From: a virus
Taxonomy: Duplodnaviria; Heunggongvirae; Uroviricota; Caudoviricetes
Reading direction: 5' to 3' (one strand)
Virus record (IMG/VR): IMGVR_UViG_3300037454_000941
Location: 138,063 to 202,062 of that record
Length of the DNA: 64,000 bases
Shown piece by piece: positions 5,184 through 56,430 of the stretch (positions within the stretch are counted from its first letter, which is position 1; every line of letters begins with the position of its first letter). The position numbers were made by a program, and so were the translations under genes. The notes under the pieces were generated by a model that saw nothing but the letters and a program-made list of their open reading frames with translations, searched no databases and had not been told where the DNA came from.

Positions 5184-5383
5184 AAATGATTTATCGGATG
5201 CGTTTCATGCCGGAAATTATAAAAACTTAGCAGAATTCGGACAAAATGTGAATCGAAGCAAAACATCTATATATCAATTGTTTAATTCATATATACCAGC
5301 ATTTAGTAGTGACCGAACTCATAGGCGCAGGCGTTTTTGTTCTAATATTGATTTGGTTGGTCAGTATGAATAATTAAATTTTT

Positions 5384-5455
5384 GCCCGTATAGCTTAACT
5401 GGAAGAGCCTCGGACTACGAATCCGACTATCGAGATTCGACTTCTCGTACGGGTA
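5384..5455 (+). tRNA. tRNA-Arg (anticodon ACG)
   Basis: hand-folded cloverleaf; acceptor GCCCGTA/TACGGGT, anticodon loop CTACGAA; no encoded CCA. Confidence 0.65.
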
Positions 5456-5463
5456 TTACTTTT

Positions 5464-5537
5464 GGCCTTGTCGACCACGTTGGCTAAGTCACCACCCTTT
5501 CACGGTGGAGAATCCGGATCGACACCGGACAAGGCTA
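5464..5537 (+). tRNA. tRNA-Glu (TTC)
   Basis: acceptor GGCCTTG/CAAGGCT, AC stem CCACC/GGTGG loop CTTTCAC, unusual T-loop ATCGACA. Confidence 0.6.
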
Positions 5538-5541
5538 CTAT

Positions 5542-5615
5542 ATTCGTCTAGCTCAATTGGTTAGAGTACCTGGCTGATATCCAGGCGGTTTCAAGTTCAA
5601 GTCTTGAGGCGAATA
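5542..5615 (+). tRNA. tRNA-Ile (GAT)
   Basis: AC stem CCTGG/CCAGG loop CTGATAT; T-arm TTGAGG... TTCAAGT. Confidence 0.65.
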
Positions 5616-5624
5616 CTAAATTAT

Positions 5625-5700
5625 GCACCATTAGCTCAGTTGGTTCTAGAGCAGTTGCCTCTTAAGCATCGGGTCCAAAGTTCAAGTCTTTGATGGTGCA
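5625..5700 (+). tRNA. tRNA-Lys (CTT)
   Basis: acceptor GCACCAT/ATGGTGC, AC loop CTCTTAA (one stem mismatch). Confidence 0.55.
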
Positions 5701-5712
5701 CTAACAAATTAT

Positions 5713-5788
5713 TGCGGTGTAGCTCAGTCCGGTTCAGAGCAGCGGAATCATAATCCGTTGGTCGAAGGTTCAAATCCTTCTTCCGCAA
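5713..5788 (+). tRNA. tRNA-Met/Ile2 (CAT)
   Basis: AC stem GCGGA/TCCGT loop ATCATAA; T-loop TTCAAAT. Confidence 0.6.
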
Positions 5789-5795
5789 CTATTGT

Positions 5796-5869
5796 GGGGC
5801 CATCGTCTAGTTGGCTAGGACACCAGCCTGTCACGCTGGAAATCACGGGTTCGAACCCCGTTGGTCCCG
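5796..5869 (+). tRNA. tRNA-Asp (GTC)
   Basis: acceptor GGGGCCA/TGGTCCC, AC loop CTGTCAC, T-loop TTCGAAC. Confidence 0.65.
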
Positions 5870-5873
5870 TTAC

Positions 5874-5946
5874 ACTCGGTTAGCTCAGTAGGGAGAGCGC
5901 CTGTTTTACACACAGATTGTCGGCAGTTCGATCCTGTCATCGAGTA
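5874..5946 (+). tRNA. tRNA-Val (TAC)
   Basis: AC loop TTTACAC, T-loop TTCGATC. Confidence 0.6.
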
Positions 5947-5950
5947 CTAT

Positions 5951-6022
5951 AGGGATTTAGGACAGTGGCTAGTCTAGCGCTCTCCAAAAGCGTCTACGGG
6001 AGTTCGAATCTCTCAGTCCCTG
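5951..6022 (+). tRNA. tRNA-Trp (CCA)
   Basis: acceptor AGGGATT/AGTCCCT, AC stem GCGCT/AGCGT loop CTCCAAA, T-loop TTCGAAT. Confidence 0.65.
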
Positions 6023-6029
6023 CTATCTT

Positions 6030-6106
6030 ATTCCACGGTCGGCAAGTGGTATGCCAGCGTGCTGTTAACGCGCCAGATTTTCGGTGGTTCGAGTCCCGGC
6101 AGAGCT
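6030..6106 (+). tRNA. tRNA-like, possibly Asn (GTT), irregular T-arm
   Basis: D-arm GGCA-AGTGGTA-TGCC, AC stem GCGTG/CGCGC loop CTGTTAA, GGTTCGAGTCC present but acceptor/T-stem pairing not resolved. Confidence 0.35.
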
Positions 6107-6113
6107 ACTAAGT

Positions 6114-6201
6114 AACGAGAACGAGATTGCGAGAAACCCGATGGTGACTCAGTTAGTGAGTATCTTGGCGGTTCTAAACCGCCCGCCATCTCGCTCTCGT
6201 T
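6114..6201. ncRNA. atypical cloverleaf-like element (three hairpins inside a 14-bp stem), not a canonical tRNA
   Basis: AACGAGAACGAGAT...ATCTCGCTCTCGTT long stem enclosing hairpins ACTCA-GTTAG-TGAGT and GGCGG-TTCTAAA-CCGCC; no T-arm on either strand. Confidence 0.4.
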
Positions 6202-6209
6202 ACAACATC

Positions 6210-6283
6210 CCCGCAGTAGTGTTAATTGGTTAGCACGCATGCTTGTGGCGCATGAAGTTCGGGTTCGAATCTCGGCTATGGGA
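6210..6283 (+). tRNA. tRNA-His (GTG)
   Basis: AC stem CATGC/GCATG loop TTGTGGC, T-loop TTCGAAT. Confidence 0.55.
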
Positions 6284-6305
6284 CTAACGAAGATAAATAA
6301 ATATG

Positions 6306-6422
6306 GGCTTCAAAGACAGTCGGGTTCTGTGTGACAAGAGACTGAATTTCTCAGCAAGTCTTCAACTGAGTCGATACTACTGAGACTCAAGCGCACGGGT
6401 CTGGTTCGAATCCAGGGAGGTC
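6306..6422 (+). tRNA. tRNA-like, over-long (about 117 nt), possibly interrupted
   Basis: canonical 3' half (TCTGG-TTCGAAT-CCAGG, acceptor GAGGTCC) but the only complementary 5' acceptor (GGGCTTC) is 117 nt upstream; internal hairpins with 11-nt loops. Confidence 0.3.
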
Positions 6423-6435
6423 CACTACTTTTTAA

Positions 6436-6509
6436 TCCACTTCAGTTCAATTGGTAGAACACACGCCTGTTAAGCGTTGAGGTTCTTGGTCCGAATCCAA
6501 GAGGTGGAG
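6436..6509 (+). tRNA. tRNA-Asn (GTT)
   Basis: acceptor TCCACTT/AGGTGGA, AC loop CTGTTAA, T-loop TCCGAAT. Confidence 0.6.
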
Positions 6510-6519
6510 CTATTTTTAT

Positions 6520-6603
6520 GCCGGTGCGCCGACGATGGCGAGTCGGGGGAGACTGTAAATCTCCTGCCTTCGGGCTTAGGGCGTTCGAATCGCTCCACCG
6601 GCA
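6520..6603 (+). tRNA. tRNA-Tyr (GTA), class II
   Basis: acceptor GCCGGTG/CACCGGC, AC stem GGAGA/TCTCC loop CTGTAAA, long variable arm, T-loop TTCGAAT. Confidence 0.7.
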
Positions 6604-6613
6604 CTAAAATTAT

Positions 6614-6686
6614 TCCACCTTAGCTCAGTAGGTAGAGCGGGCGACTGTTAATCGCCTGGTCCCACGTTCGAGTCGTGGAGGTGGAG
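6614..6686 (+). tRNA. tRNA-Asn (GTT), paralog of the gene at 6436
   Basis: acceptor TCCACCT/AGGTGGA, AC stem GGCGA/TCGCC loop CTGTTAA, T-loop TTCGAGT. Confidence 0.65.
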
Positions 6687-6693
6687 CTAATAT

Positions 6694-6769
6694 TGCCGAT
6701 TAGCCAAGCGGTAAGGCGCCGCGCTCTGAACGCGGGATTCTTTCGGTGGTTCGATCCCATCATCGGCAA
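6694..6769 (+). tRNA. tRNA-Gln (CTG)
   Basis: acceptor TGCCGAT/ATCGGCA, AC stem CCGCG/CGCGG loop CTCTGAA. Confidence 0.65.
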
Positions 6770-6779
6770 CTATTTATAT

Positions 6780-6850
6780 GCACCTATGTTGTAGTGGTAG
6801 CAAAACGCATTGCCTGTGCGTGAGCTCCGGTTCGAATCCGGATAGGTGCT
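6780..6850 (+). tRNA. tRNA-Gly (GCC)
   Basis: acceptor GCACCTA/TAGGTGC, AC stem ACGCA/TGCGT loop TTGCCTG, T-loop TTCGAAT. Confidence 0.6.
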
Positions 6851-6854
6851 CTAT

Positions 6855-6942
6855 CTCGATGTGATGGAACTGGTAGACATAACAGGTTGAGAGCCTGTGG
6901 CATATACAAACGTGCATGGCAGTCCGACTCTGCCCATCGAGA
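6855..6942 (+). tRNA. tRNA-Leu (GAG), class II
   Basis: acceptor CTCGATG/CATCGAG, AC stem ACAGG/CCTGT loop TTGAGAG, long variable arm. Confidence 0.65.
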
Positions 6943-6954
6943 CTAAACAACTTG

Positions 6955-7042
6955 CTCCCCGTGATGGAATGGGCATACATATGGGACTTAAAATCCCACG
7001 CGAAGAATAAATCGCATACCGGTTCGATGCCGGTCGGGGAGA
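6955..7042 (+). tRNA. tRNA-Leu (TAA), class II
   Basis: acceptor CTCCCCG/CGGGGAG, AC stem TGGGA/TCCCA loop CTTAAAA, T-arm ACCGG-TTCGATG-CCGGT. Confidence 0.65.
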
Positions 7043-7120
7043 CTATAGGAGAATCGAACATGAAGAAACTTAAATTGAAACGATTATAAAGGTGGCAGCT
7101 GCCTATCAGCTGTGATTTAT

Positions 7121-7213
7121 GCGGGTATAACTCAGCTGGTAGTGCGTTTTACGCCAAGAGTACGCGACTTTTAATCGCGGAGTCGGAATTGGGTTCGAAT
7201 CCCCCTACCCGCA
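7121..7213 (+). tRNA. tRNA-Lys (TTT) with about 15-nt insertion in the D-loop
   Basis: acceptor GCGGGTA/TACCCGC, AC stem CGCGA/TCGCG loop CTTTTAA; D-region carries extra TGCGTTTTACGCCAA. Confidence 0.5.
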
Positions 7214-7217
7214 CTAT

Positions 7218-7288
7218 GCATCATTGAGGTAATGGTAGCCCTGCAGAATTCCACTCTGCCTGTACGAGTTCGAGTCTCGTATGATGCT
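7218..7288 (+). tRNA. tRNA-Gly (TCC)
   Basis: acceptor GCATCAT/ATGATGC, AC stem GCAGA/TCTGC loop ATTCCAC. Confidence 0.6.
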
Positions 7289-7297
7289 CTATTTTAT

Positions 7298-7382
7298 CGC
7301 TCTGTGGCGGAATTGGCGATACGCGGCGCACTCAAAATGCGCTGTCCGAAAGGGCATGTGGGTTCGACTCCCACTTGAGCGA
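7298..7382 (+). tRNA. tRNA-Leu (CAA), class II
   Basis: AC stem GCGCA/TGCGC loop CTCAAAA, variable arm, T-loop TTCGACT. Confidence 0.6.
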
Positions 7383-7391
7383 CTAATCTAT

Positions 7392-7475
7392 CGGCATGTG
7401 GAGTAACTGGTAGCCTCGTCAGATTCAGGTTCTGATGGCCGCAAGGTCGTGAGGGTTCGATTCCCTCTGTGCCGA
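7392..7475 (+). tRNA. tRNA-Leu (CAG), class II
   Basis: acceptor CGGCATG/TGTGCCG, AC stem TCAGA/TCTGA loop TTCAGGT, T-loop TTCGATT. Confidence 0.55.
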
Positions 7476-7481
7476 CTATTT

Positions 7482-7553
7482 GGCCCTTTAGACCAGCGGT
7501 TAAGTCACGGGATTCTCAATCCCGGCACCCGAGTTCGAGCCTCGGAGGGGCTA
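7482..7553 (+). tRNA. tRNA-Glu (CTC)
   Basis: AC stem CGGGA/TCCCG loop TTCTCAA, T-loop TTCGAGC. Confidence 0.6.
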
Positions 7554-7557
7554 CTAT

Positions 7558-7631
7558 TGAGCCTTGGTGCAATTTGGTAGCACGCAAGATTTTGAGTCTT
7601 GATGTTGTTGGTTCGAGTCCAGCCGGCTCAA
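7558..7631 (+). tRNA. tRNA-Gln (TTG)
   Basis: AC stem CAAGA/TCTTG loop TTTTGAG, T-loop TTCGAGT. Confidence 0.6.
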
Positions 7632-7634
7632 TTA

Positions 7635-7724
7635 CCCGAGGTGGTGGAATTGGTAGACACCCCGGACTTAGGATCCGGCGCTGTATTCGCATGCAGCATG
7701 CAGGTTCGACGCCTGTCTTCGGGA
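7635..7724 (+). tRNA. tRNA-Leu (TAG), class II
   Basis: acceptor CCCGAGG/CTTCGGG, AC stem CCGGA/TCCGG loop CTTAGGA, long variable arm. Confidence 0.65.
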
Positions 7725-7739
7725 CTAACGGATTTTTAT

Positions 7740-7812
7740 GCACCCTTAGCCAAGCCTGGTAAGGCATGTGGTTGCAACCCACCGACCGGCGGTTCGAATC
7801 CGTCAGGGTGCT
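7740..7812 (+). tRNA. tRNA-Cys (GCA)
   Basis: acceptor GCACCCT/AGGGTGC, AC stem TGTGG/CCACC loop TTGCAAC, T-loop TTCGAAT. Confidence 0.7.
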
Positions 7813-7821
7813 CTAACTTTT

Positions 7822-7892
7822 ATCGCACTGATGTAATGGTAGCATGACTGTCTCCAAAACAGTTCGTAGGGGTCCGAATCCTTTGTGCGGTG
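7822..7892 (+). tRNA. tRNA-Trp (CCA), second copy
   Basis: AC stem ACTGT/ACAGT loop CTCCAAA, T-loop TCCGAAT. Confidence 0.55.
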
Positions 7893-7907
7893 TTATTTTT
7901 TCTTTAT

Positions 7908-7980
7908 GGGGCTCTGGCAGAGTTGGTCAATGCGCTGGACTGAAAATCCGGAGATTGGGGTTCGAATCCCCGGGGCCCCA
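7908..7980 (+). tRNA. tRNA-Phe (GAA)
   Basis: acceptor GGGGCTC/GGGCCCC, AC stem CTGGA/TCCGG loop CTGAAAA, T-loop TTCGAAT. Confidence 0.6.
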
Positions 7981-7986
7981 CTATTT

Positions 7987-8078
7987 GGAAGTGTCCCATA
8001 ATTGGTTATTGGCCCTCCTTGGAAAGGAGCGTGGTGGGGTAAATTCCCTGCATGGAGGTTCGAGCCCTCCCATTTCCG
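7987..8078 (+). tRNA. tRNA-Ser (GGA), class II
   Basis: acceptor GGAAGTG/CATTTCC, AC loop TTGGAAA, long variable arm, T-loop TTCGAGC. Confidence 0.65.
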
Positions 8079-8085
8079 CGAATTT

Positions 8086-8172
8086 GGAAGCGTAGACCTA
8101 ATTGGTAAGGCCCCCGGCTCGAACCCGGTGGTGAGGAAGTTCCTCATGTAGGTTCAAGTCCTGCCGCTTCCG
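8086..8172 (+). tRNA. tRNA-Ser (CGA), class II
   Basis: acceptor GGAAGCG/CGCTTCC, AC loop CTCGAAC, T-loop TTCAAGT. Confidence 0.65.
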
Positions 8173-8176
8173 CTAT

Positions 8177-8260
8177 GGAAGCGCACGAGATTGGTGACTC
8201 AAGCGGACTTGAAATCCGTGGTTCCGCAAGGGCTTGGGGGTTCGAATCCCTCCGCTTCCG
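8177..8260 (+). tRNA. tRNA-Ser (TGA), class II
   Basis: acceptor GGAAGCG/CGCTTCC, AC stem GCGGA/TCCGT loop CTTGAAA, T-loop TTCGAAT. Confidence 0.65.
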
Positions 8261-8266
8261 CGAAAT

Positions 8267-8339
8267 CAGTGTGTAGCTCAGCCGGTAGAGCGCATGCTTC
8301 GGGAGCATGAGGTCGGTGGATCGTTCCCACCCACGCTGA
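8267..8339 (+). tRNA. tRNA-Pro (CGG)
   Basis: AC stem CATGC/GCATG loop TTCGGGA. Confidence 0.6.
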
Positions 8340-8343
8340 CTAT

Positions 8344-8416
8344 TCCGACATAGCTCAATTGGCAGAGCAGTTCATTAGTAATGAACCGGTTACTCGTTCG
8401 ATGCGAGTTGTCGGAG
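8344..8416 (+). tRNA. tRNA-Thr (AGT)
   Basis: acceptor TCCGACA/TGTCGGA, AC stem GTTCA/TGAAC loop TTAGTAA; A34 anticodon is unusual for bacteria. Confidence 0.55.
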
Positions 8417-8422
8417 CTATTT

Positions 8423-8511
8423 GGAGAGGTAGCCTAATTGGTAAGGCAGGAGAGTGCTAATCTCCCGTGGCCCTCAAAAGCTGCTTGCAGGTTCAATCCC
8501 TGTCCTCTCCG
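8423..8511 (+). tRNA. tRNA-Ser (GCT), class II
   Basis: acceptor GGAGAGG/CCTCTCC, AC stem GGAGA/TCTCC loop GTGCTAA, T-loop TTCAATC. Confidence 0.65.
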
Positions 8512-8518
8512 CTATTAT

Positions 8519-8593
8519 GTTGAAGGTAGCTCAACTGGTAGAGTTCTGGCTTGTGACGCCAGAGGTTGCCGGATCATACCCGGTCCTTCAACC
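8519..8593 (+). tRNA. tRNA-His (GTG)-like, divergent T-loop
   Basis: acceptor GTTGAAG/CTTCAAC, AC stem CTGGC/GCCAG loop TTGTGAC, T-loop ATCATAC. Confidence 0.45.
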
Positions 8594-8640
8594 TATTAGT
8601 CATCCGAAATGTCGCGCTATTACCCAACAAAGGATACATT

Positions 8641-8970
8641 ATGGTGACCGTAGCCCAGATCAACGAATTGCGCAAGGCGACCCAAGTGAGCATGCTTCTT
8701 TGCAAGCAGGCTCTCGAAGCGACCGGCGGCGACTTCGATGCCGCCAGGGAATGGCTCCGAGGCCAGGGTCGCGAGGTCGCCGGGGAGGCCGGCGTGTTCG
8801 GGGTCACCCTGTTCGCTGACGGTGCAACGACCGGTTCCGAGGTGACATCGGGTTACGTGTACAATGACGGCCATACAGCAATCGACATCCGCGGATTCAG
8901 TGGAACCACCCCCACTTGCGTATGGGGCGATTTGAGACACCAAGTAATTTTGCGTCCTGCGAAAAATTGA
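8641..8970 (+). CDS. small protein with elongation factor Ts N-terminal (UBA-like) domain
   Basis: N-terminus VTVAQINELRKATQVSMLLCKQALEATGGDFDAAREWLRGQG matches the EF-Ts N-domain pattern (LRxxTGxxMxxCKKALxExxGDxExAxExLR); start preceded by AAAGGATACATT; embedded in tRNA array. Confidence 0.55.
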   Translation: MVTVAQINELRKATQVSMLLCKQALEATGGDFDAAREWLRGQGREVAGEAGVFGVTLFADGATTGSEVTSGYVYNDGHTAIDIRGFSGTTPTCVWGDLRHQVILRPAKN

Positions 8971-8975
8971 TCTTC

Positions 8976-9051
8976 GCCGGCGTAGCTCAATGGACTTTAG
9001 AGCAAGTGGCTTCTAACCACTAGGTTGCCAGTTCGACTCTGGCCGTCGGTA
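8976..9051 (+). tRNA. tRNA-Arg (TCT)
   Basis: AC stem AGTGG/CCACT loop CTTCTAA, T-loop TTCGACT. Confidence 0.6.
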
Positions 9052-16338: not shown

Positions 16339-16977
16339 GTGGATGGAACAATGATTGGAAATGAAGAGCAGCACTATCCGATATTACCCGGAATGGAACT
16401 CCCGCACAATATCAAGGTGGAGGTTCACAAGGGCGAACTCGAACACCTGAGACAGACCATTTCTGACTTCGGGCATATAGTCGAGGAGAACGATCGTCTT
16501 AGGGAAAAGGTCGCCTCCTTGCAACGCCAGATTGCCACGGGCACTCCATGGAACCCGTGGATCCCGGTCGAGGACAACCCGCCGAAGGTTTCTGATGGGT
16601 TGTTCTATATCATGTGGGAGGATGGGTGCTTAGATACCGGTCTCGTGGCACCGAGCACTGGAGAAATTGTTCCACAGACGCCCAGGTCGCTCTATGAACT
16701 GACCGGTGACGAGGGACATTCGATTGAATGGTGGATGCCCGCGCCACCGCGTCCCGAAAAGATATCGCCACCGGCTGAAATGCCTACAAAAACTCCGGAA
16801 AAGGCATATGTGGTTGTCTTGAAGATGATGGACTCATGGTGCCTTGTTGGAAAGAAGGTTTTCACAAAATTCGAGGATGCCGAGAGGTTCCGTTTGCGGG
16901 CACAGGAAAAGACTCAGAAAATACTGGATACGGAAGAGGTCAAGCTCCTGGATAGTTACACCCCGCCACAGAAATGA
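16339..16977 (+). CDS. hypothetical protein
   Basis: 212-aa ORF. Confidence 0.6.
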   Translation: MDGTMIGNEEQHYPILPGMELPHNIKVEVHKGELEHLRQTISDFGHIVEENDRLREKVASLQRQIATGTPWNPWIPVEDNPPKVSDGLFYIMWEDGCLDTGLVAPSTGEIVPQTPRSLYELTGDEGHSIEWWMPAPPRPEKISPPAEMPTKTPEKAYVVVLKMMDSWCLVGKKVFTKFEDAERFRLRAQEKTQKILDTEEVKLLDSYTPPQK

Positions 16978-16983
16978 GCATGC

Positions 16984-17010
16984 AGGTTGCCGCAAGGCAA
17001 CCTTTTTGCT
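16984..17010 (+). terminator. Rho-independent terminator overlapping next promoter
   Basis: GGTTGCC-GCAA-GGCAACC + TTTTT. Confidence 0.55.
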
Positions 17011-17016
17011 ACATTT
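17005..17016 (+). promoter_or_regulatory. extended -10 promoter motif (TTTGCTACATTT)
   Basis: 5 nt upstream of ATG 17022. Confidence 0.55.
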
Positions 17017-17021
17017 GGGAC

Positions 17022-18257
17022 ATGAAGATTGAAGAAAAGTACATTTCCGAGACAGTCAAGAAGGGTATCGGCTTGCTCGCCGAAATCCATAAGCGCGGAC
17101 ACGAGGCATACATTGCCGGTGGCGCCGTGCGCGACCTCGTAATTCGCCAGTTGCACATGGTGCCGGGTTCCGAAAATGAAGTTCCCGTGCATGACGTGGA
17201 CATAGCGACCAACATGCCCATCGAGGACCTGAAACTTGCCTTCCGCTGCGACTCCAATAACGGGGAAGCGCATGGCACGATCCTGGTCCATTATGATGGC
17301 CTGGTGTTCGAGGTGACCCAGTTCCGCGTCGATGGCAACTATTCCGACGGTCGCCACCCGGATTCGGTGAATTTCACCAAGTCCTTCAAGGAAGACTGCG
17401 CCCGGCGTGACTTTACCATTAACGCTATGGGTCTGGACAAGGACCTCAATGTCATCGACTATTTCGGCGGTATCGACGACCTGGTATTCCGTCGTCTCCG
17501 TGCAGTGGGCAACCCGTATGACCGCATGACCGAGGATTCCCTCCGTATCATTCGCGGTATGCGATTTGCCGCCCGTTTCGGTTTCGTGATTGACGACCTT
17601 ACCAAGTTGGCCATGCGCAGCCGCCTGCACCACATCAAGAGCGTGGCGATGGAGCGCATCCATGACGAATTGCACAAGTGTGCCGAGTATGGCGTGCTGC
17701 CTTTCGCGAACATGATTGGGTACCTGTCCGAGTATGGCATCGGAACAATTTTCCAGGATGTCGGCTTCTGCTTTGACCGTCAGCGCATGCTCGTGGAATC
17801 CTTGGTACACGGAAACGTGGATGCCGATACAATCATGTCGGTATTCATCTGCATGCTGCCGAAGAAGAGCATGGAATGGCTCCGCTGCACCCGTAAGGAA
17901 ATCCGCATGGCCGAGCGCATCAGGGATGGTCTTATTGGCATCATGTCCGGGAAGTTCGGTCTTGCCGATGAGCAGTTGCTCTATTCCGTTGAACTGGCCG
18001 CTTCCCCGGAATTCAGGCTCATTACCAACCTGTACCGCGAACTGAACCCGTATGGTACCGCCCTGGGTGATGGTGCGGCGACGATATGCGATGTCATTGC
18101 GCGTTGCAGGAAGGGCGAACCCGAATACGGAAAGCAGGTTGCCGCGGAAGGTATCCAGGAAGGGCCTGAATTTGGCAAGCGCCTGCGGGAAGTCATCCTC
18201 GCCGATTACAAGCGCATCAAGGATGGCTGGGACAAATCATGCAATAGGATGTGGTAA
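17022..18257 (+). CDS. cca: tRNA nucleotidyltransferase (CCA-adding enzyme)
   Basis: GGAVRDLV...DVDIATN head domain, RRDFTINA, DRMTEDSLRIIRGMRFAARFGF motifs of class II CCA enzymes/poly(A) polymerases. Confidence 0.85.
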   Translation: MKIEEKYISETVKKGIGLLAEIHKRGHEAYIAGGAVRDLVIRQLHMVPGSENEVPVHDVDIATNMPIEDLKLAFRCDSNNGEAHGTILVHYDGLVFEVTQFRVDGNYSDGRHPDSVNFTKSFKEDCARRDFTINAMGLDKDLNVIDYFGGIDDLVFRRLRAVGNPYDRMTEDSLRIIRGMRFAARFGFVIDDLTKLAMRSRLHHIKSVAMERIHDELHKCAEYGVLPFANMIGYLSEYGIGTIFQDVGFCFDRQRMLVESLVHGNVDADTIMSVFICMLPKKSMEWLRCTRKEIRMAERIRDGLIGIMSGKFGLADEQLLYSVELAASPEFRLITNLYRELNPYGTALGDGAATICDVIARCRKGEPEYGKQVAAEGIQEGPEFGKRLREVILADYKRIKDGWDKSCNRMW

Positions 18258-20290: not shown

Positions 20291-20303
20291 TTTGCTATAT
20301 TTT
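20291..20303 (+). promoter_or_regulatory. extended -10 promoter motif (TTTGCTATATTTT)
   Basis: 4 nt upstream of ATG 20308. Confidence 0.55.
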
Positions 20304-20307
20304 GAAC

Positions 20308-21654
20308 ATGAACGATAATAGCGAAATTTTCAAGAACAACATACCCGAACTCCCGCCATTCTCGAAGGAACTCGAACACTACTGGGAAGAACAGGTGACC
20401 AACGGTGCCATGTCCGAAACCGAGAAGAGGGTCCATGAAAAGGGTATCCTCCTCATCAAGGTGGCCGCGGGTTCGCAGTCGTTCGGTCTTGCCACCGAGA
20501 CTTCCGATGTGGACATTCACGGTGTGTATATCCTGAAATGGAGCGAGCGCATCAAGCACGATGCCCCGAGCCAGATTGCCGACGAGAAGAACAACGAGGT
20601 CTACTGGGACATCACGAAGTTCCTTACCGAGTTGAACTCCGCCAATCCCCAGGCCCTCGAAATGCTCTATGCTCCGAAGCATTGCGTATTTGTGGGCCAG
20701 TCTATCCTCGAAATCCTCCGAAAGAAATTTGACTTCCTCACCATGCGTTGTGACAAGTCGTTCTGCGAGTATGCCCGTGGCCAGGTTGACCGTGCGAAGG
20801 GCCTGAACAAGAAGGTATTCGATCCGCAGCCGGAGAGGCGCCCGCGTTTCGTCGATTTCATCTATGTCCTCGATGGCAACCTCGCCACTCCCCTCATGGA
20901 ATGGATTAAGGCCAATTATCGCGGCAAGCCGGAAGAAGTCCAGCGTTGGTTCTCCATCGCCCGGATCGACCATGGCGATTGCATCTACGCGGTGTATTTC
21001 CAGAAGAAGTCGCTGTCCATCAGTATCCGCGAATTCGTCCGGAAATGCCTCTCCAAGGTATTCAAGGGTGTCCGTCAGCTTCCCGAGCACAAGTGGCGTT
21101 GGGGCTATGGTGTCGTCCGTGACATCGAGCGCAGCGATGATATTCAACTCAACTCCATCCCGAAGGGTTTGAGCCCTGTTGCCCATATCTTTGTGAACCG
21201 CAACGACTTTGCGCGTAAGTGCAAGAAGTGGCACGAGTATTGGGACTGGGTCAAGGCCCGTAACGAGGAACGCTACAACACCACCTTGAAGCATGGCCAG
21301 GGCTACGATGCGAAGAACATCATGCACTGTGTCCGTCTGCTCCTTACCGCCTACGGTATCGCCACCGAGCATACCGTCCCGGTCTACCGTGCCGACAGGG
21401 ACCTCTGCAACAAGGTCTGCATGGATTACAACAAGCATCCGTACAGCAATGACCGTGACTTCCTCCTGGCAATCAAGAACGGTGACTGGACGTTCGATGA
21501 CATCATCGACTACATCGGCGAGCTTGGCAAGGAAGTGAACAAGGCGTTTGCCGCATCCGGATTGAAGGAAAGGGCATATACACCGGAAGAAATCGACAAG
21601 TTCTCCGTGGAACTTGCCGAGAAGTTGCTTCCGATGGATTGGGCTAATTTCTAA
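20308..21654 (+). CDS. pol-beta superfamily nucleotidyltransferase (predicted nucleotidyltransferase, PF10127-like)
   Basis: GSQSFGLATETSDVDIHGVYI = GS...SDxD nucleotidyltransferase motif. Confidence 0.65.
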   Translation: MNDNSEIFKNNIPELPPFSKELEHYWEEQVTNGAMSETEKRVHEKGILLIKVAAGSQSFGLATETSDVDIHGVYILKWSERIKHDAPSQIADEKNNEVYWDITKFLTELNSANPQALEMLYAPKHCVFVGQSILEILRKKFDFLTMRCDKSFCEYARGQVDRAKGLNKKVFDPQPERRPRFVDFIYVLDGNLATPLMEWIKANYRGKPEEVQRWFSIARIDHGDCIYAVYFQKKSLSISIREFVRKCLSKVFKGVRQLPEHKWRWGYGVVRDIERSDDIQLNSIPKGLSPVAHIFVNRNDFARKCKKWHEYWDWVKARNEERYNTTLKHGQGYDAKNIMHCVRLLLTAYGIATEHTVPVYRADRDLCNKVCMDYNKHPYSNDRDFLLAIKNGDWTFDDIIDYIGELGKEVNKAFAASGLKERAYTPEEIDKFSVELAEKLLPMDWANF

Positions 21655-45460: not shown

Positions 45461-45552
45461 CTGGTAAGCGCCGGGAGCCGTCGGACGGACAACTCGAGTA
45501 AGGTCGCCCGCTCCTCCCGGCGCCGGGACAGTCAGCACATGTCCCACCCCCT

Positions 45553-45624
45553 AGCCCTCGGGTGTGACTGGTAGCATCGCAGACTCCAAATCTGCAGGAT
45601 GGCGTTCGAAGCGTCAGGGGGCTG
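45553..45624 (+). tRNA. tRNA-Trp (CCA)-like, third copy
   Basis: acceptor AGCCCTC/GGGGGCT, AC stem GCAGA/TCTGC loop CTCCAAA, T-loop TTCGAAG. Confidence 0.45.
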
Positions 45625-45628
45625 TTAC

Positions 45629-45701
45629 GCATCTGTAGCTCAGTTGGTAGAGCGCATCCTTGCCATGGATGAGGTCACCGGATCGAAGCCGGCCAGATGC
45701 T
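45629..45701 (+). tRNA. tRNA-Gly (GCC)
   Basis: acceptor GCATCTG/CAGATGC, AC stem CATCC/GGATG loop TTGCCAT, T-loop ATCGAAG. Confidence 0.6.
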
Positions 45702-45710
45702 CGAAATTAC

Positions 45711-45781
45711 GCGCCTATGGTGTATTGGCTGCATCGCTGCCTTCCAAGCAGCGGGATCCGTTTCGACTACGGATAGGCGCT
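45711..45781 (+). tRNA. tRNA-Gly (TCC)
   Basis: acceptor GCGCCTA/TAGGCGC, AC stem GCTGC/GCAGC loop CTTCCAA. Confidence 0.6.
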
Positions 45782-45788
45782 TTAAAAT

Positions 45789-45859
45789 GCTTCTATATGC
45801 TAATGGTAGACGAGCGGACTCTTAATCCGTGGGTTCTGGTTCGAGTCCAGATAGGAGCA
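45789..45859 (+). tRNA. tRNA-Lys (CTT)
   Basis: AC stem GCGGA/TCCGT loop CTCTTAA, T-loop TTCGAGT. Confidence 0.55.
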
Positions 45860-45866
45860 CTAACAT

Positions 45867-45938
45867 TCCGGCGTAGCTCAGTTGGTAGAGCGGCCCCTTC
45901 ATACGGGGTTGGTCGCAGGTTCGAGCCCTGCCACCGGG
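45867..45938 (+). tRNA. tRNA-Met (CAT)
   Basis: AC stem GCCCC/GGGGT loop TTCATAC, T-loop TTCGAGC. Confidence 0.6.
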
Positions 45939-45951
45939 ACTAACAATCAAC

Positions 45952-46027
45952 TTCGATGCGTGGTGTAATTGGTTAGCACGCCGCTCTGATAAGGCGGTAG
46001 TTGTTGGTTCGAGTCCAGCCGTATCGA
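45952..46027 (+). tRNA. tRNA-Ile (GAT)
   Basis: acceptor TCGATGC/GTATCGA, AC stem CCGCT/GGCGG loop CTGATAA. Confidence 0.55.
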
Positions 46028-46041
46028 CTAAGGAGTAAGAA

Positions 46042-46076
46042 TATGAACAGACGAAAACGTAATACCTCGCGAATTT
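46042..46076 (+). other. tiny SD-led ORF (MNRRKRNTSRI, 11 codons) inside tRNA array
   Basis: AAGGAG 6 nt upstream of ATG; similar tiny basic ORF (MKKLKLKRL) at 7058-7087. Confidence 0.25.
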
Positions 46077-46081
46077 GACTT

Positions 46082-46154
46082 CACGGGTGTGGCGAAATTG
46101 GTATCGCAATAGACTTTTAATCTATGGGCTGCGGGTTCGATCCCCGTCACCCGT
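46082..46154 (+). tRNA. tRNA-Lys (TTT)
   Basis: acceptor ACGGGTG/CACCCGT, AC stem ATAGA/TCTAT loop CTTTTAA, T-loop TTCGATC. Confidence 0.65.
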
Positions 46155-46159
46155 ATAAC

Positions 46160-46234
46160 TGGGGCCATAGTTCAGTTGGCTAGAACGCCGGCTTGTCACG
46201 CCGGAAATCGCGGGTTCGAGCCCCGCTGGTCCCG
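46160..46234 (+). tRNA. tRNA-Asp (GTC), paralog of 5796
   Basis: acceptor GGGGCCA/TGGTCCC, AC stem CCGGC/GCCGG loop TTGTCAC. Confidence 0.65.
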
Positions 46235-46238
46235 CTAC

Positions 46239-46312
46239 GGTGCCGTAGCTCAGTTGGACAGAGCAGCCGTCTTCTAAACGGCCGGTCGAATGTTCGACTC
46301 ATTCCGGCATCA
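46239..46312 (+). tRNA. tRNA-Arg (TCT)
   Basis: AC stem GCCGT/ACGGC loop CTTCTAA, T-loop TTCGACT. Confidence 0.65.
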
Positions 46313-46321
46313 CGAATTTTT

Positions 46322-46394
46322 CGGCGTATAGCGCAGTTGGTAGCGCACATGCTTCGGGAGCATGGGGTCGCTGGTTCGAGTCCAGCTACGCCGA
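46322..46394 (+). tRNA. tRNA-Pro (CGG)
   Basis: acceptor CGGCGTA/TACGCCG, AC stem CATGC/GCATG loop TTCGGGA. Confidence 0.65.
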
Positions 46395-46404
46395 CTAGAC
46401 TTTC

Positions 46405-46477
46405 CGGGGTGTAGCTCAGATGGTAGAGCGCCTGCTTTGGGAGCAGGATGTCGCAGGTTCGAGCCCTGCTACCCCGA
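46405..46477 (+). tRNA. tRNA-Pro (TGG)
   Basis: acceptor CGGGGTG/TACCCCG, AC stem CCTGC/GCAGG loop TTTGGGA. Confidence 0.65.
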
Positions 46478-46480
46478 TAT

Positions 46481-46553
46481 GCCGTCGTAGCTCAGTTGGT
46501 AGAGCAGCGCACCTGTAATGCGCCGGTCGCTGGTTCGATGCCGGCCGACGGCT
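46481..46553 (+). tRNA. tRNA-Thr (TGT)
   Basis: acceptor GCCGTCG/CGACGGC, AC stem GCGCA/TGCGC loop CCTGTAA. Confidence 0.6.
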
Positions 46554-46556
46554 TAT

Positions 46557-46629
46557 GCCGGGTTAGCTCACTTGGCAGAGCGGCGCATTCGTAATGCGCA
46601 GGTCGCAGGTTCGAGCCCTGCACCCGGCT
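46557..46629 (+). tRNA. tRNA-Thr (CGT)
   Basis: acceptor GCCGGGT/ACCCGGC, AC stem GCGCA/TGCGC loop TTCGTAA. Confidence 0.65.
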
Positions 46630-46637
46630 CTCGCTTT

Positions 46638-51554: not shown

Positions 51555-52025
51555 GATGGGACGATTGAGTTTCCTGGATACTCGTTCGACCGGTTCCTTG
51601 CGGCGATAGGAAACTAGTCGCATGTTTGGTGAGATGTTTAGTTTCGACTGGGCATCGGACCATCAGCTACCCAACGGGGAAACCCGTTGAAATTGAAGGA
51701 AACTTTGATTTCATAGTTGATTAGACTCAGTAATGCATAGCAATATGCTGAACTACGTTAGGAAGGTCATGGCACCCTGGGATGTACGGTCAAGTCCCCC
51801 GCCCTGCCGTCCGTGGTTAAACAGTCCTGATGGGTAGGGACAGTGCTGCGGGCATGACAAGCCTTCCTAACATTGTCGATGACCACCCACAGGGGCAACC
51901 CCTGCATTACCCGATTAAGTTCGGGTTCCCGTAAAGGGCCAACGCCGGGACGCCGCTCACACATCTTCAGTGGGTGAGTTCCCGCCCCGGCAAAGGTTTT
52001 CTATATTGAAACAGGTGGACTATGT
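51555..52025 (+). ncRNA. candidate structured ncRNA segment B with tmRNA-like 5' motif
   Basis: contains GGTGAGATGTTTAGTTTCGACTGGGCATCGGACC, similar to the tmRNA 5' end GGGGGTGCTTGGTTTCGACTGGACATCTGACC; GNRA loops (GGGAAACCC); no canonical tmRNA 3' end found. Confidence 0.35.
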
Positions 52026-52028
52026 ATT

Positions 52029-52387
52029 TGGGGGTGCTTGGTTTCGACTGGACATCTGACCTCATAGACCTCGCCCGAAGTTGGTCTGTGGCTTCGTAAA
52101 AACGGACTGAAAAAATAAATGCTAACGATGCATTCGCCTGCCGCATGGCTGCCTAATCGGTAGTTATGCTGCTGCCTGGGACAAGCGAGAGGAATAAATC
52201 CTGGGACCAAGTGCATATCTCTCAAATCTAGGTCGGAGTTATGGATTGGATGGCCTACCTTACCTTAATCCAGACCCCTCACTGGTTAGATCACCTTGGG
52301 CAACAGGTCAGGGCCCGAATAGATTGATGGCGATATGGTTGAACTGGAATGGCGTTTAGGACAGGGGTTCGACTCCCCTCACCTCCA
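52029..52387 (+). ncRNA. ssrA: tmRNA (ssrA), one-piece; tag reading frame GCU AAC GAU GCA UUC GCC UGC CGC AUG GCU GCC UAA (ANDAFACRMAA)
   Basis: 5' GGGGGTG..GGTTTCGACTGG and 3' GGGGTTCGACTCCCCTCACCTCCAC give a tRNA-like domain with a 7-bp acceptor (GGGGGTG/CACCTCC, one GU); internal short ORF ending in AA-stop. Confidence 0.75.
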
Positions 52388-52389
52388 CG

Positions 52390-53808
52390 AATTTATGTCC
52401 TTCCACCGGTAGGACCGCCCTTCAGCACGGGGTAGAGTGCGCATACGGTTTCGAGTGTTGCCGATGCTGCATGAAGGTGGTGGACCAAAGTATGACCTGA
52501 GGACCCATCCAGGTGGGATGGGCGTGGCAAGATGCTTCGTAACAGATTCGCAAGGTCAGAGGCTCCCGTAAGGGTTACCGTCGAATATAGGTTAATGAAG
52601 ACGGGTAAAATCGAGAATATCCGGATTATTCCAGCCCAGGATATGCCTAATAATTTCTCTCCTGCCCCCTTCGAGGGTACGGTTGCGCCGTGGGCTGCGT
52701 ACCAGTCACGGCTGCGTAAAGCGGTAGGCCGGCGCTATATCCGGCAGTGTGTTTGAAAAATGGATACTGAGCATGGTTTCTCGTAGCATTACGCCCGAGG
52801 GTCGCGCCCTCTAAGGTATCCGCAGTTTCCGAAATTCGCAGACCAGTGCAGGATGCGCATCCGGCTGGCCGGGACACGTAGGGGACGGAAGAAAATGCTA
52901 CTATCCATTGAACGCGGTCGTCTAAATGAGCAGGCGTTAATATCGCCTGTGCTTAGGACTCCGGCGCCATCGTGGCCACCAGGCATTAACAGGTGTGGCA
53001 AACAGCGCGGGCAATATAGGGACAGATCCTATCCGCGAAACCTATGGAACGCCTTATTATTAAGTACGGTGAGAGTCCGGGCGGCGGGGCAACCCGCAGC
53101 CGAAGTAGGAAATTTTAAGATTCCGGGATGTTCTATAAAACGTCATCGGTGAAGATTGTTGGGGAACATCGTCTGGTCGAGGGCGAAAGCCTGTGGAGAC
53201 CCACGCCTAACCGCGCCGATGGCAAACTTTTAACGCCGCAGACCAAGATACGCCACCGTGTATGCATTTTACGCGTTTCCTTTATCACACGGAAGTATCG
53301 CCCCACCGGGCTACGGTCGCGGTATCAGTTTAGCACCGTATGGCCAAGTTGCTCATGGGCATCTCGAGAAGACCCATGGGTGACGCCCCGACTAGGAGCT
53401 GGGCCGCGGCCACAGTCGCATGCCGACTAGCACCCTCGGGGGAGCGATCCGAAACGAGGCGCCTCTGTGAGCGAAAAATGTGTGAAAAAGCATGCGGCAA
53501 GGGGCGAGACCTCCACTGGTAAAAACCTTGGCCTCGCCCCGGCGCTTTTGTTGCTTCCCGTTGCCAGCGGGGGGAACAGACGGTACCTGGCTCCGTGAAA
53601 ACCAGGTTATGCCCGGCACCAGGCAAACCGGACGGTGCCCATTGGCGATGTCCCTGCCGGAATAAGGGATGGCGGTGAAGGCAAGATATCCGCACGCTGT
53701 GGTAAATCCTTCTCGTACAGAGGGACGAGGGGTAATACACGGCAACCGAGGTGGCATCTCGGTTTCTTCCATGTGGGGGCTATCCGATGGCCATCGGATG
53801 CTCCTTTC
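52390..53808 (+). ncRNA. candidate large structured ncRNA segment C (about 1.4 kb, unknown class)
   Basis: GC-rich, many GNRA tetraloop hairpins (GGGCGAAAGCC, CCGTAAAGGG, GCGTAAAGC, CCGTGAAAACCAGG); only short ORFs in all frames; flanked by tmRNA and tRNA-Thr. Confidence 0.4.
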
Positions 53809-54257: not shown

Positions 54258-54450
54258 TAGTATTGATTTTTGAGATAGAACAAGGTCTAAGCAGAAAGTC
54301 GCGGGTCTTTAGTTCCAAATGACTAGAACACCGACCGGGGCAACCCTCGTTGGAGGTTCTGGGTTCAAGTCCCAGTTGATCCGAATAGCGGCGCGAGCTG
54401 TCGAACGAGTAGGCTAGGTCACAGTGAGAAAGGACTGTTTGAAAGTGTAA

Positions 54451-54949: not shown

Positions 54950-56430
54950 AATTGGTGACAAATAGGCGGTCGCAAGCTCACGCCCTTTAGGGCGTGGGTA
55001 AGACCCGCCGATAGTAAATGTAAGAAATAAATAACATTTGAAAGCCTCATAATTATTGTATATTTGAGTTAAGATACTATAAACTTTAATTGAAGTCAAG
55101 AAATTTATTATGGAAGCAGTAAGAAGCGAAAATACGAAGGCCAAGATACGGGCAAGCATGTCCGCGACGAAGGCCAGACGACAGGCACAGGTCTGTCGCG
55201 TATTTGAGCTTAAAGTATCCATAAGGCATAATCCGAAGGAAACCTTCAAAAAATTAGCCCAATGTTTCAAGGAAGCTAAATGGGTAATCAACGACATGCT
55301 GTCATTATCCAAGGACAATCCCGACAATAGCATGTTCGACTACAAGTACACAGAGCACAAAGATGTAGTCCACTACGACAAGGACAAGAACCCGATAACG
55401 GATACGGTCACATTGCCATCGGTGCTTCATCGTGCTACAGTAGCTCAGAAGAAGACGGATATTGTCAACCTTGCCAAGGCCAAGAAGAAAGGCATCAAGG
55501 TCGGTGCGTTGAAGTTCAAGTCGGAAGTCAACTGCCTACCAATTATTACCGGATTTACGCAGATTCTGGACGGATGTCGAATAACCATTCCTGGCTTTCG
55601 TAAGCTCCGTGTACACGGCCTTAATCAATTACATCAATTCGAGAAGTGTGAACTTGCCGATGCCAAGCTGATTAGGAAGGCATCCGGCTACTACGTGAAG
55701 ATTAGCGTAATGCTACCGAAGGAGAAGAGGATTCCTACCAACCGCAACGTTGGTCTCGACTTCGGAATAAAGGATTCCATAACGACATCGTACGGTGACA
55801 AGTACAAGTGTAATGTGCGAGAAACAGACCGCCTAAAATTCCTGTCGCGGAAACTTAATCGTAGAGGGAAGAAAAAGAACGAGAAGGGGTCGAAGCTGTA
55901 TTACAAGTGTCTTCGTCAACTGAATCGTGAGTATGAACATATTGCCAATGTCCGCAAGGACATTGCCAATAAAATCTACCACAAACTGGTAACCGATTAT
56001 GATGTTATCTACTTTCAAGACGAGCAGATAAAGAACTGGCATAAGGGCTTGTTCGGAAAACAGGTGCAGTCATCGTGTCTTGGCACATTGAAGCAGAGGC
56101 TAGTTGCATTGGAAACAAGTGGCCGTAGCTTCAAGATTTCCAAGTGGGAACCGACTACCAAGCTATGTCCAGTATGCGGTACTATCAACCATCCTACTCT
56201 TGCCGACCGTATCTATAAGTGTGAATGTGGTTATACGATGGATAAGGATGTTCATTCTGCCCGTGTAGTCTTGATGATTGGCTCATCAAAAAGAGCTGAG
56301 TGCTTGGAACAAGCCTCGCCGGAGCTGAGTCCGCTACCGACTTGCAATCCGATTGCAACTAGGCAAGACTTGGCGTCGATGACACAACACGAAGCTCACC
56401 GCCTTTAGGCGGTGGGTAGTTCACAAGGAA
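54950..56430 (+). mobile_element. IS200/IS605-family tnpB-only element with subterminal hairpins
   Basis: LE-like hairpin GCAAGCTCACGCCCTTTAGGGCGTGGG (about 54972-54998), tnpB, RE-like hairpin AAGCTCACCGCCTTTAGGCGGTGGGTAGTTC (about 56391-56422). Confidence 0.55.
55110..56408 (+). CDS. tnpB: TnpB (IS605/IS1341-type RuvC-like nuclease with Zn finger)
   Basis: 432 aa; GLDFGIKD RuvC motif, CPVCG...CECG zinc finger, HSARVVL. Confidence 0.9.
   Translation: MEAVRSENTKAKIRASMSATKARRQAQVCRVFELKVSIRHNPKETFKKLAQCFKEAKWVINDMLSLSKDNPDNSMFDYKYTEHKDVVHYDKDKNPITDTVTLPSVLHRATVAQKKTDIVNLAKAKKKGIKVGALKFKSEVNCLPIITGFTQILDGCRITIPGFRKLRVHGLNQLHQFEKCELADAKLIRKASGYYVKISVMLPKEKRIPTNRNVGLDFGIKDSITTSYGDKYKCNVRETDRLKFLSRKLNRRGKKKNEKGSKLYYKCLRQLNREYEHIANVRKDIANKIYHKLVTDYDVIYFQDEQIKNWHKGLFGKQVQSSCLGTLKQRLVALETSGRSFKISKWEPTTKLCPVCGTINHPTLADRIYKCECGYTMDKDVHSARVVLMIGSSKRAECLEQASPELSPLPTCNPIATRQDLASMTQHEAHRL

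Follow-up and report, generated by a model that had tools for sequence, protein, structure and literature searches.

A one-piece tmRNA gene in a tRNA-rich phage lineage, with a protein-less IscB element at its 5' end

In bacterial one-piece tmRNA, a tRNA-like domain is joined to a short tag-coding frame; the tag of E. coli SsrA is ANDENYALAA. Phages also carry such genes, among them the Bxz1-type mycobacteriophages. In huge phages, tmRNAs and SmpB have been described among the translation genes (Al-Shayeb et al. 2020, PMC7162821).

The tmRNA gene analyzed here lies in a stretch of 64,000 nucleotides of a viral genome record from IMG/VR, which we call the window. Compared to bacterial one-piece tmRNA (Rfam family RF00023), it has the same tRNA-like domain with a G3.U70 pair, a predicted pseudoknot before a GCN resume codon, and a tag that likewise starts with AND-, ends in hydrophobic-Ala-Ala and has its UAA in a hairpin loop. 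It differs in the middle of the tag (-AFACRM-), in that CCA is not encoded, and in being borne by a phage; away from the two ends, its body is not detectably similar to any of the bacterial tmRNAs that we recovered. With the tmRNAs of huge phages it shares a large genome, many tRNAs and translation-related genes. In contrast to these, no SmpB was seen in the window, the gene has been interrupted and rebuilt by a transposon derivative, and the lineage has no match in the phage reference collection.

The transposon derivative belongs with the IscB elements. In these, the omega-RNA is located at one transposon end, with the guide outside the element and the target-adjacent motif (TAM) on the other side (Meers et al., bioRxiv 10.1101/2023.03.14.532601). 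The same study reports that the TAM is of the YCAT type, that the elements prefer the orientation of the upstream gene and are therefore transcribed, and that derivatives lacking the protein exist (Meers et al., bioRxiv 10.1101/2023.03.14.532601). Our locus resembles IscB omega-RNA and PATE-like derivatives in its full HEARO scaffold, in the guide position immediately 5' of the transposon end and outside it, in the ATGR far-side flank of the full copies, and in being co-oriented with the upstream transcription unit. On the other hand, the 64 kb contain no iscB, either adjacent to it or farther away, the sequence on its own far side (ATATTG) is off-motif, and it sits inside an RNA gene whose 5' end is duplicated and restored downstream.

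A further comparison is offered by the free-standing homing endonucleases of T-even phages, which bias the inheritance of neighboring genes, as SegB does in the tRNA region of T4 (review PMC13565253). Here, too, a nuclease-linked selfish element is found in the tRNA/tmRNA region of a phage, its presence or absence is polymorphic among close relatives, and the resident allele is a few substitutions away from the sibling allele, exactly at the presumed recognition site. In contrast to SegB-type enzymes, recognition would be by a guide RNA rather than by a protein, the nuclease gene is not adjacent, and cleavage and homing are presumed.

The tmRNA gene and its relatives

ARAGORN called a standard (non-permuted) one-piece tmRNA with the tag ANDAFACRMAA followed by a stop codon, and Rfam returned a full-length match to RF00023 (52030-52390, model positions 1-374, 111.7 bits against a gathering score of 47, E = 8.5e-43). 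Both agree with a preliminary description, made from the letters alone, which had proposed a one-piece tmRNA with this very tag. ARAGORN folded the tRNA-like domain and placed the tag at gene positions 92-127, where the preliminary description had it, and RF00023 aligns the same GCU with the resume codon of the model. The 7-bp acceptor stem and the T-arm that it had pointed out are evident both in the sequence and in the consensus fold. Its coordinates were right within one base: the start had been set one position early, at 52029, which is a T, and the run of G begins at 52030. The coordinates of the gene and of the other features discussed below are collected in Table 1.

Table 1. Positions of the tmRNA gene, the IscB-type element and selected genes in the window
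Feature	Position	Strand	Basis or description
tmRNA (ssrA) gene, one-piece	52030-52388	+	ARAGORN; Rfam RF00023; 14-sequence consensus fold
Acceptor stem	52030-52036 / 52380-52386		GGGGGUG/CACCUCC, 7 bp, G3.U70
T-arm of tRNA-like domain	52363-52379	+	AGGGG-UUCGACU-CCCCU
Tag frame	52121-52156	+	GCU AAC GAU GCA UUC GCC UGC CGC AUG GCU GCC UAA = ANDAFACRMAA, stop
Decayed older copy of tmRNA 5' end	51625-51661	+	Continuous with ancestral upstream flank
IscB omega-RNA scaffold	51662-51925	+	Rfam 51662-51890; conservation with IscB-linked copies to ~51925
Element tail, protein-less	51926-52002	+	iscB ribosome-binding-region remnant joined to far transposon end; comparison with L109, L112
New leader, 27 nt	52003-52029	+	Only in element-bearing loci; starts ATATTG
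Allele B cluster	52052-52065	+	Six substitutions: 52052, 52057, 52062-52065
CCA-adding-type tRNA nucleotidyltransferase	16974-18257	+	Pfam PolyA_pol 6e-29; NCBIfam
RlaP-family nucleotidyltransferase	20302-21654	+	
NadR-like protein; nicotinate phosphoribosyltransferase	in window	+	
TnpB-like ORFs, two	3792-5183, 55110-56408	+	Pfam OrfB_IS605 + Cas12f1-like TNB
Homing endonuclease, PHROG 655	2896-3570	+	7.8e-37

To recover relatives we used internal 18-20-mers, which worked better than a 30-nt probe from the 3' end. The latter matched 90 viral contigs with tmRNAs of many unrelated types, and the only true relative among them was a contig designated L080 (L numbers denote contigs throughout). 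In all, we found 14 distinct tmRNA relatives, 80-99% identical, beside tRNA arrays; the contigs were viral ones from IMG/VR (75-203 kb) and metagenome ones of up to 399 kb. Since full-length relatives were found only in viral and metagenome contigs and in this company, a large phage is the reasonable reading. Megablast and blastn against the phage reference collection INPHARED gave no match to the tmRNA region, and a single scan of IMG/VR contigs produced ~67 further tmRNA calls. We also looked for a host or donor ssrA by scanning bacterial genome contigs with the 5' 19-mer; this returned 15 tmRNAs from unrelated phyla, none of which was alike over the full length, the likeness to the phage tmRNA being lost in the body between both ends.

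The consensus fold of 14 sequences contains 91 pairs. Double changes that compensate each other occur in nine of these, and two of the nine are in the hairpin at the end of the tag. The acceptor stem with its G.U at the third pair is invariant across the 14 sequences. The discriminator A is 52387 and the next letters are C-G-A; the gene thus ends in ...CCUCC-A-CGA and CCA is not encoded. In the covariance-model alignment the PK1 region has a high posterior probability and pseudoknots 2-4 have a low one; for the PK2-PK4 region the consensus fold, which is blind to pseudoknots, gives hairpins with compensatory pairs (for example, columns 204/228 and 206/226). The identity of the tmRNA, its conservation and covariation and the lack of an encoded CCA are direct results of these comparisons. 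We consider it very probable that the one-piece tmRNA is functional and belongs to a lineage of large, tRNA-rich phages, with its gene rebuilt around a protein-less IscB element. Phage tmRNAs are already known, and the gene adds one well-supported lineage to that set.

Two signals for a permuted tmRNA were rejected as artefacts of the shared T-arm: an ARAGORN call of that type overlapping the L080 gene, and a sub-threshold Rfam match to tmRNA_permuted at 51989-52156 (24 bits against 47). A scan for consensus sigma-70 promoters, which is uninformative for phage promoters, found none before either 5' end.

The PK2-3 region (alignment columns 204-247, approximately 52232-52273 in the window) occurs as two haplotypes with the compensatory pairs just named, and these are shuffled irrespective of which 5' allele and which tag variant accompany them. 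Outside its 5' region the tmRNA is a mosaic of reassorting haplotypes, pointing to frequent recombination among these phages.

The IscB omega-RNA element and the duplicated 5' end

As shown in Table 1, the tmRNA gene is preceded by an element that the preliminary description had missed. Rfam places a full-length HEARO (IscB omega-RNA) 140 nt upstream of the tmRNA and on the same strand (RF02033, model 1-211, 121.6 bits against a gathering score of 83). Its score is close to the 125.8 bits of the IscB-linked copies, it starts in the same register (ATCARCTACCC) as those in L109 and L112, and 15 of the 81 predicted pairs of the scaffold are compensatory among four copies. The iscB ORF is deleted, no ORF follows the scaffold, and the tail has a hairpin (51956-51978) and a ...TTTCT terminus that resemble the far end of full elements. 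The combination of an omega-RNA scaffold, an iscB remnant and a far-end hairpin and terminus suggests an internal-deletion, PATE-like derivative. Its far boundary was set by analogy with the full elements because IMG/VR held no other copies of the solo-element tail. A tblastn search of the 64-kb window with the IscB of L109 found no IscB (best E 0.15).

In related HEARO copies of L109, L111 and L112, iscB lies directly downstream. The ORF in L109 (5252-6538) qualifies as a genuine IscB (NCBIfam guided_IscB, 350 bits with a cut-off of 175; Pfam RRXRR and HNH). The far-side flanks of these full elements are ATGGAC in L109, where it rejoins an interrupted ORF in frame, ATGAGT in L112, where it is the start codon of the next gene, and ATGGAA in L111. 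The ATGR that they have in common is the reverse complement of YCAT. The far-side flank of the solo element is ATATTG, not ATGR.

We found the element at four loci, in the window and in L109, L096 and L101. It is absent from ten (L099, L095, L103, L102, L110, L091, L105, L108, L098 and L080), and there the conserved upstream flank runs directly into the tmRNA (GGGGGTGC...). In the window, an older tmRNA copy breaks off after its first ~32 nt, where the element (51662-52002) begins, and the new leader and an intact 5' end come next. Within the older copy, the 21 nt adjoining the element (51641-51661, GTTTCGACTGGGCATCGGACC) are at the position expected for an omega-RNA guide and are identical to the sibling tmRNA sequence that we call allele A. 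The acceptor-stem G-run of the older copy is destroyed (GGGGGTGCTTG to GGTGAGATGTTTA, 5 changes in 11 nt); a Fisher test of the 21 unchanged nucleotides against the 5 changes in the adjoining 11 nt gave p ~5e-4, as a post hoc test.

The intact 5' end carries a different allele, B: its 5' region reads GGACATCTGACCTCATAG, and that of allele A in siblings reads GGGCATCGGACCATGGAG. The counterpart of the 21-nt stretch in allele B is GTTTCGACTGGACATCTGACC, followed by TCATAG, and in allele A the 21 nt are followed by ATGGAG. As the flanks of the full elements are of this kind, allele A is a legitimate insertion site. When six B genes were compared to the four nearest A genes, the only fixed differences were the six columns of the allele B cluster. 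Two of these substitutions are in the guide-matched target, the 16 nt next to the scaffold-proximal end of the match, and four turn the adjacent ATGG into TCAT. In gene pairs such as L101/L105 or L109/L110, eight columns differ in each pair and six of the eight are the A/B columns. None of the six substitutions breaks a predicted pair, as one changes a G.U into an A-U and the others are unpaired.

Allele B was found at all four element-bearing loci, and none of the eight distinct non-B loci had the element (Fisher p = 0.015, not corrected for phylogeny). Allele B also occurs with the ancestral leader and without the element in L095 and L099, the closest relatives of the window. Such element-free B loci are what recombination between the two direct copies would leave.

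These comparisons show that the tmRNA gene has been rebuilt, with what appears to be a protein-less, IscB-type IS200/IS605 deletion derivative in the old 5' end and a new 5' end after it. The patch of ~57 nt that follows the element (new leader plus duplicated tmRNA 5' end) was not made by simple insertion, because IS200/IS605 insertion makes no target duplication. The safe reading is that the tmRNA gene received a protein-less IscB element and was restored by a duplicated and diverged 5' end.

The HEARO copy that precedes the tmRNA in L096 (3446-3813, - strand) is a chimera. Its 5' third is like the IscB-linked copies, its 3' part and tail are like the solo type, and the sequence that borders it upstream has no relation to the ancestral tmRNA flank, which suggests a rearrangement by recombination between HEARO copies.

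The solo omega-RNA as a candidate guide

The pattern of guide match, alleles and element suggests, although it does not prove, RNA-guided allele exclusion between phages. It could be speculated that the solo omega-RNA is an active guide which, together with IscB acting in trans, cuts the allele A tmRNA genes of competing phages and spares the resident allele B. The IscB would be encoded at another locus of the genome or contributed by a relative infecting the same cell, and repair of the cut would spread the element along with allele B. Such a process would be the RNA-guided counterpart of intronless homing and marker exclusion in T-even phages. We regard it as possible but doubtful.

In this mechanism, IscB would act in trans and the stump of the tmRNA gene that was once interrupted would serve as the guide. 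Transcription of the tRNA/tmRNA unit would yield the guide RNA, which might be released by the RNase P cut at the tmRNA 5' end.

Several observations are consistent with an active guide. The scaffold is of full length, has kept 15 compensatory pairs and scores like the IscB-linked copies (121.6 as compared to 125.8 bits). There is no mismatch to allele A in the 21 nt where the guide is expected, and the 11 nt next to them have accumulated 5 changes. After the target, allele A continues with ATGGAG; the flanks of three independent full elements (ATGGAC, ATGAGT and ATGGAA) are the reverse complement of the YCAT-type TAM of IscB elements. The fixed differences between A and B are confined to two positions in the target and four in the motif and are structurally neutral. 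The element accompanies allele B in 4/4 cases and is found at 0/8 distinct non-B loci. Sibling genomes (L109, L111 and L112) do have IscB genes, and the element is co-oriented with the tRNA/tmRNA unit, as IscB elements prefer.

Other observations speak against an active guide. The 64-kb window is without IscB. The guide of an IS200/IS605 element is its own flank by construction, so that matching allele A does not by itself indicate that the guide is used. In L109, an otherwise near-identical element has a deletion of precisely the 28 guide-bearing nt. The four motif positions are in an unpaired loop and also vary in other clades (ACGGAG in L108; TGTGGAG in L080 and L098), A2 alleles share one of the two target changes, and allele B exists without the element in L095 and L099. 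Judged on these sequences, we would entertain only tentatively that a guide RNA without a nuclease gene of its own has been kept as an allele-specific weapon or homing device against the sibling tmRNA, with the phage's own tmRNA escaping through the six substitutions.

The adjoining element is a natural case of an IscB guide RNA that has become parted from its nuclease and is placed in a conserved RNA gene of a phage. Close relatives supply both the matching, sensitive allele and the mismatched, resident allele, and this makes the element a more useful lead than the tmRNA. If it is active, OMEGA-type RNA-guided nucleases would have a part in competition between phages, or in homing, beyond keeping the transposon in place, and the two alleles would provide a ready-made natural pair of target and escape sequences for experiment.

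Tag, processing and genome surroundings

We infer from established tmRNA biology how the gene would act in trans-translation, from processing and charging through SmpB to tagging and proteolysis. The tmRNA would be transcribed along with the neighboring tRNA genes on the + strand, RNase P would trim its 5' end and the 3' end would also be trimmed. CCA would then be added by a CCA-adding enzyme, of which the phage encodes one, and the host AlaRS would charge the RNA with alanine by virtue of G3.U70. Together with SmpB, the tmRNA would enter stalled ribosomes. SmpB is presumably that of the host, as none was found in the window; the search was by tblastn of the 64 kb with an approximate E. coli SmpB query, which makes it a weak negative. 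Translation would resume at the GCU at 52121 and add ANDAFACRMAA, and the hydrophobic-Ala-Ala end should send the tagged product to host AAA+ proteases. The preliminary description had proposed that the phage must rescue ribosomes stalled on its own transcripts, many of them apparently leaderless; none of the present results supports this rationale.

The stop codon is presented by a hairpin whose 5' strand is made up of codons 7-11 of the tag. According to the Rfam alignment and the consensus fold, this hairpin has the UAA in its loop, and its 11-bp stem includes compensatory changes. None of the 14 distinct relatives departs from this tag length, frame, UAA stop or final AA, and their tags conform to the 11-codon pattern A[ND][ND]A[FY]A[CY][RA][MVA]AA. 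The tags found were ANDAFACRMAA, ADNAFACRMAA, ANNAYACRMAA and, in more distant members of the clade, ADNAFAYAVAA and ADNAFAYAAAA. Changes such as N/D and F/Y are conservative. Alignment column 112, the second position of the Cys/Tyr codon, changes in concert with column 144, as does column 117, the first position of the Met/Val-Ala codon, with column 139. As the Cys and Met codons are inside the stop-codon hairpin and co-vary with their partners, CRM is constrained by the helix as much as by the peptide. CRM is a derived state in a clade whose deeper members have an ordinary-looking YAVAA.

The tag had been described at the outset as atypical, and this holds in part. Cys is rare in tags, being present in only one of ~67 other viral tags; however, the AND- start and the -AA end are canonical, and -MAA ends are found elsewhere, in AEPQLKMAA of the viral contigs L064/L077 and in GNDNLLMAA of a Cloacimonadota MAG.

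In E. coli SsrA, the N-terminus of the tag and its C-terminal hydrophobic-Ala-Ala are recognized by adaptors and ClpX. One alternative to the pathway above is that the phage tag is not a conventional degradation signal, either because the tmRNA mainly frees ribosomes and the RNA hairpin chiefly shapes the tag, or because a phage-specific protease is targeted. It could account for the Cys/Tyr and Met/Val-Ala swaps, each of which comes with a compensatory change in the opposite hairpin strand, and for the central residues, which vary (CRM, YAV, YAA) as the RNA pairing is kept. A protein of the ClpP family is encoded in relatives, a few kb past the right end of the window. However, every relative has kept the A-N/D-N/D N-terminus and the hydrophobic-Ala-Ala C-terminus, and the ClpP-like protein is below every NCBIfam cut-off and matched equally well by head-maturation proteases. 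We therefore find this alternative unlikely and favor a conventional degradation tag. The variant tags (CRMAA as compared to YAVAA and YAAAA) could be used to test which features of a tag phages need.

The ClpP-family ORF is itself worth recording. It encodes 180 amino acids, matches Pfam CLP_protease and is located at 14350-14892 in L128 and at 9946-10488 in L129, on the - strand in both of these related contigs, which places it ~4 kb beyond the right end of the window. PHROGs and NCBIfam leave undecided whether it is ClpP or a head-maturation protease, with scores below the curated cut-offs. It may bear on the fate of tagged proteins.

The 3' end of tmRNA is a classic integration site. It is nevertheless highly improbable that the gene is a host ssrA, with bacterial DNA or the flank of a prophage around it, or that it is a non-functional relic in decay: its 30-nt 3' end is indeed common to many unrelated tmRNAs, but it lies among 53 tRNA genes with phage-type genes around it, its full-length relatives are in viral and metagenome contigs only, the 15 bacterial tmRNAs with the same 5' 19-mer resemble it only at both ends of the tRNA-like domain, and decay is disfavored by the compensatory changes and the invariant tag frame.

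The tRNA genes of the window had been put at about 60. The region is tRNA-rich, as that figure implied, but ARAGORN finds 53, to which Rfam adds one match above threshold and one just below. All of the tRNA genes and the listed ORFs are on the + strand. CCA is encoded by only one of the 53 tRNA genes, and most are followed by TAT or TAA. A CCA-adding-type enzyme is needed because CCA is absent from the tmRNA gene and from 52 of the 53 tRNA genes. The candidate for this role (Table 1) scores 219 bits with the NCBIfam CCA tRNA nucleotidyltransferase model, below its equivalog cut-off of 290.

The tRNA genes include those at 5383-9051 and 45552-46630, among others. The tRNA-like Rfam matches without an ARAGORN call are at 7121-7213 (43.1 bits, above threshold) and 54303-54383 (28 bits, just below). 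The PHROG 655 homing endonuclease ORF is just upstream of the first TnpB-like ORF and the first tRNA array, and the second TnpB-like ORF lies between tRNA genes. With two TnpB-like ORFs and the IscB-type element, the tRNA regions hold several elements of the IS200/IS605 family.

Further non-coding sequences are present on both sides of the tmRNA gene. Between tRNA-Pro and the tmRNA leader, many siblings have a non-coding block of ~200 nt (CAAGAAGAGCGGTTTGAAATCGG...GGGATTCCCCTTGTTCC), located ~100-330 nt upstream of the tmRNA in L099, L103, L105, L110, L091 and others. It is missing in the window (between 51543 and 51551), in L109 and L095 and partly in L102; it has no Rfam match and may be another mobile or structured RNA element. 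Directly 3' of the tmRNA, the non-coding stretch 52391-52544 has no Rfam match and is 91% conserved relative to 7437-7591 of L091, which has an extra insert of ~97 nt between the tmRNA 3' end and this stretch. In the sibling L102, a match to a group I intron (RF00028, 4117-4381, 55.4 bits against 50) lies downstream of the tmRNA.
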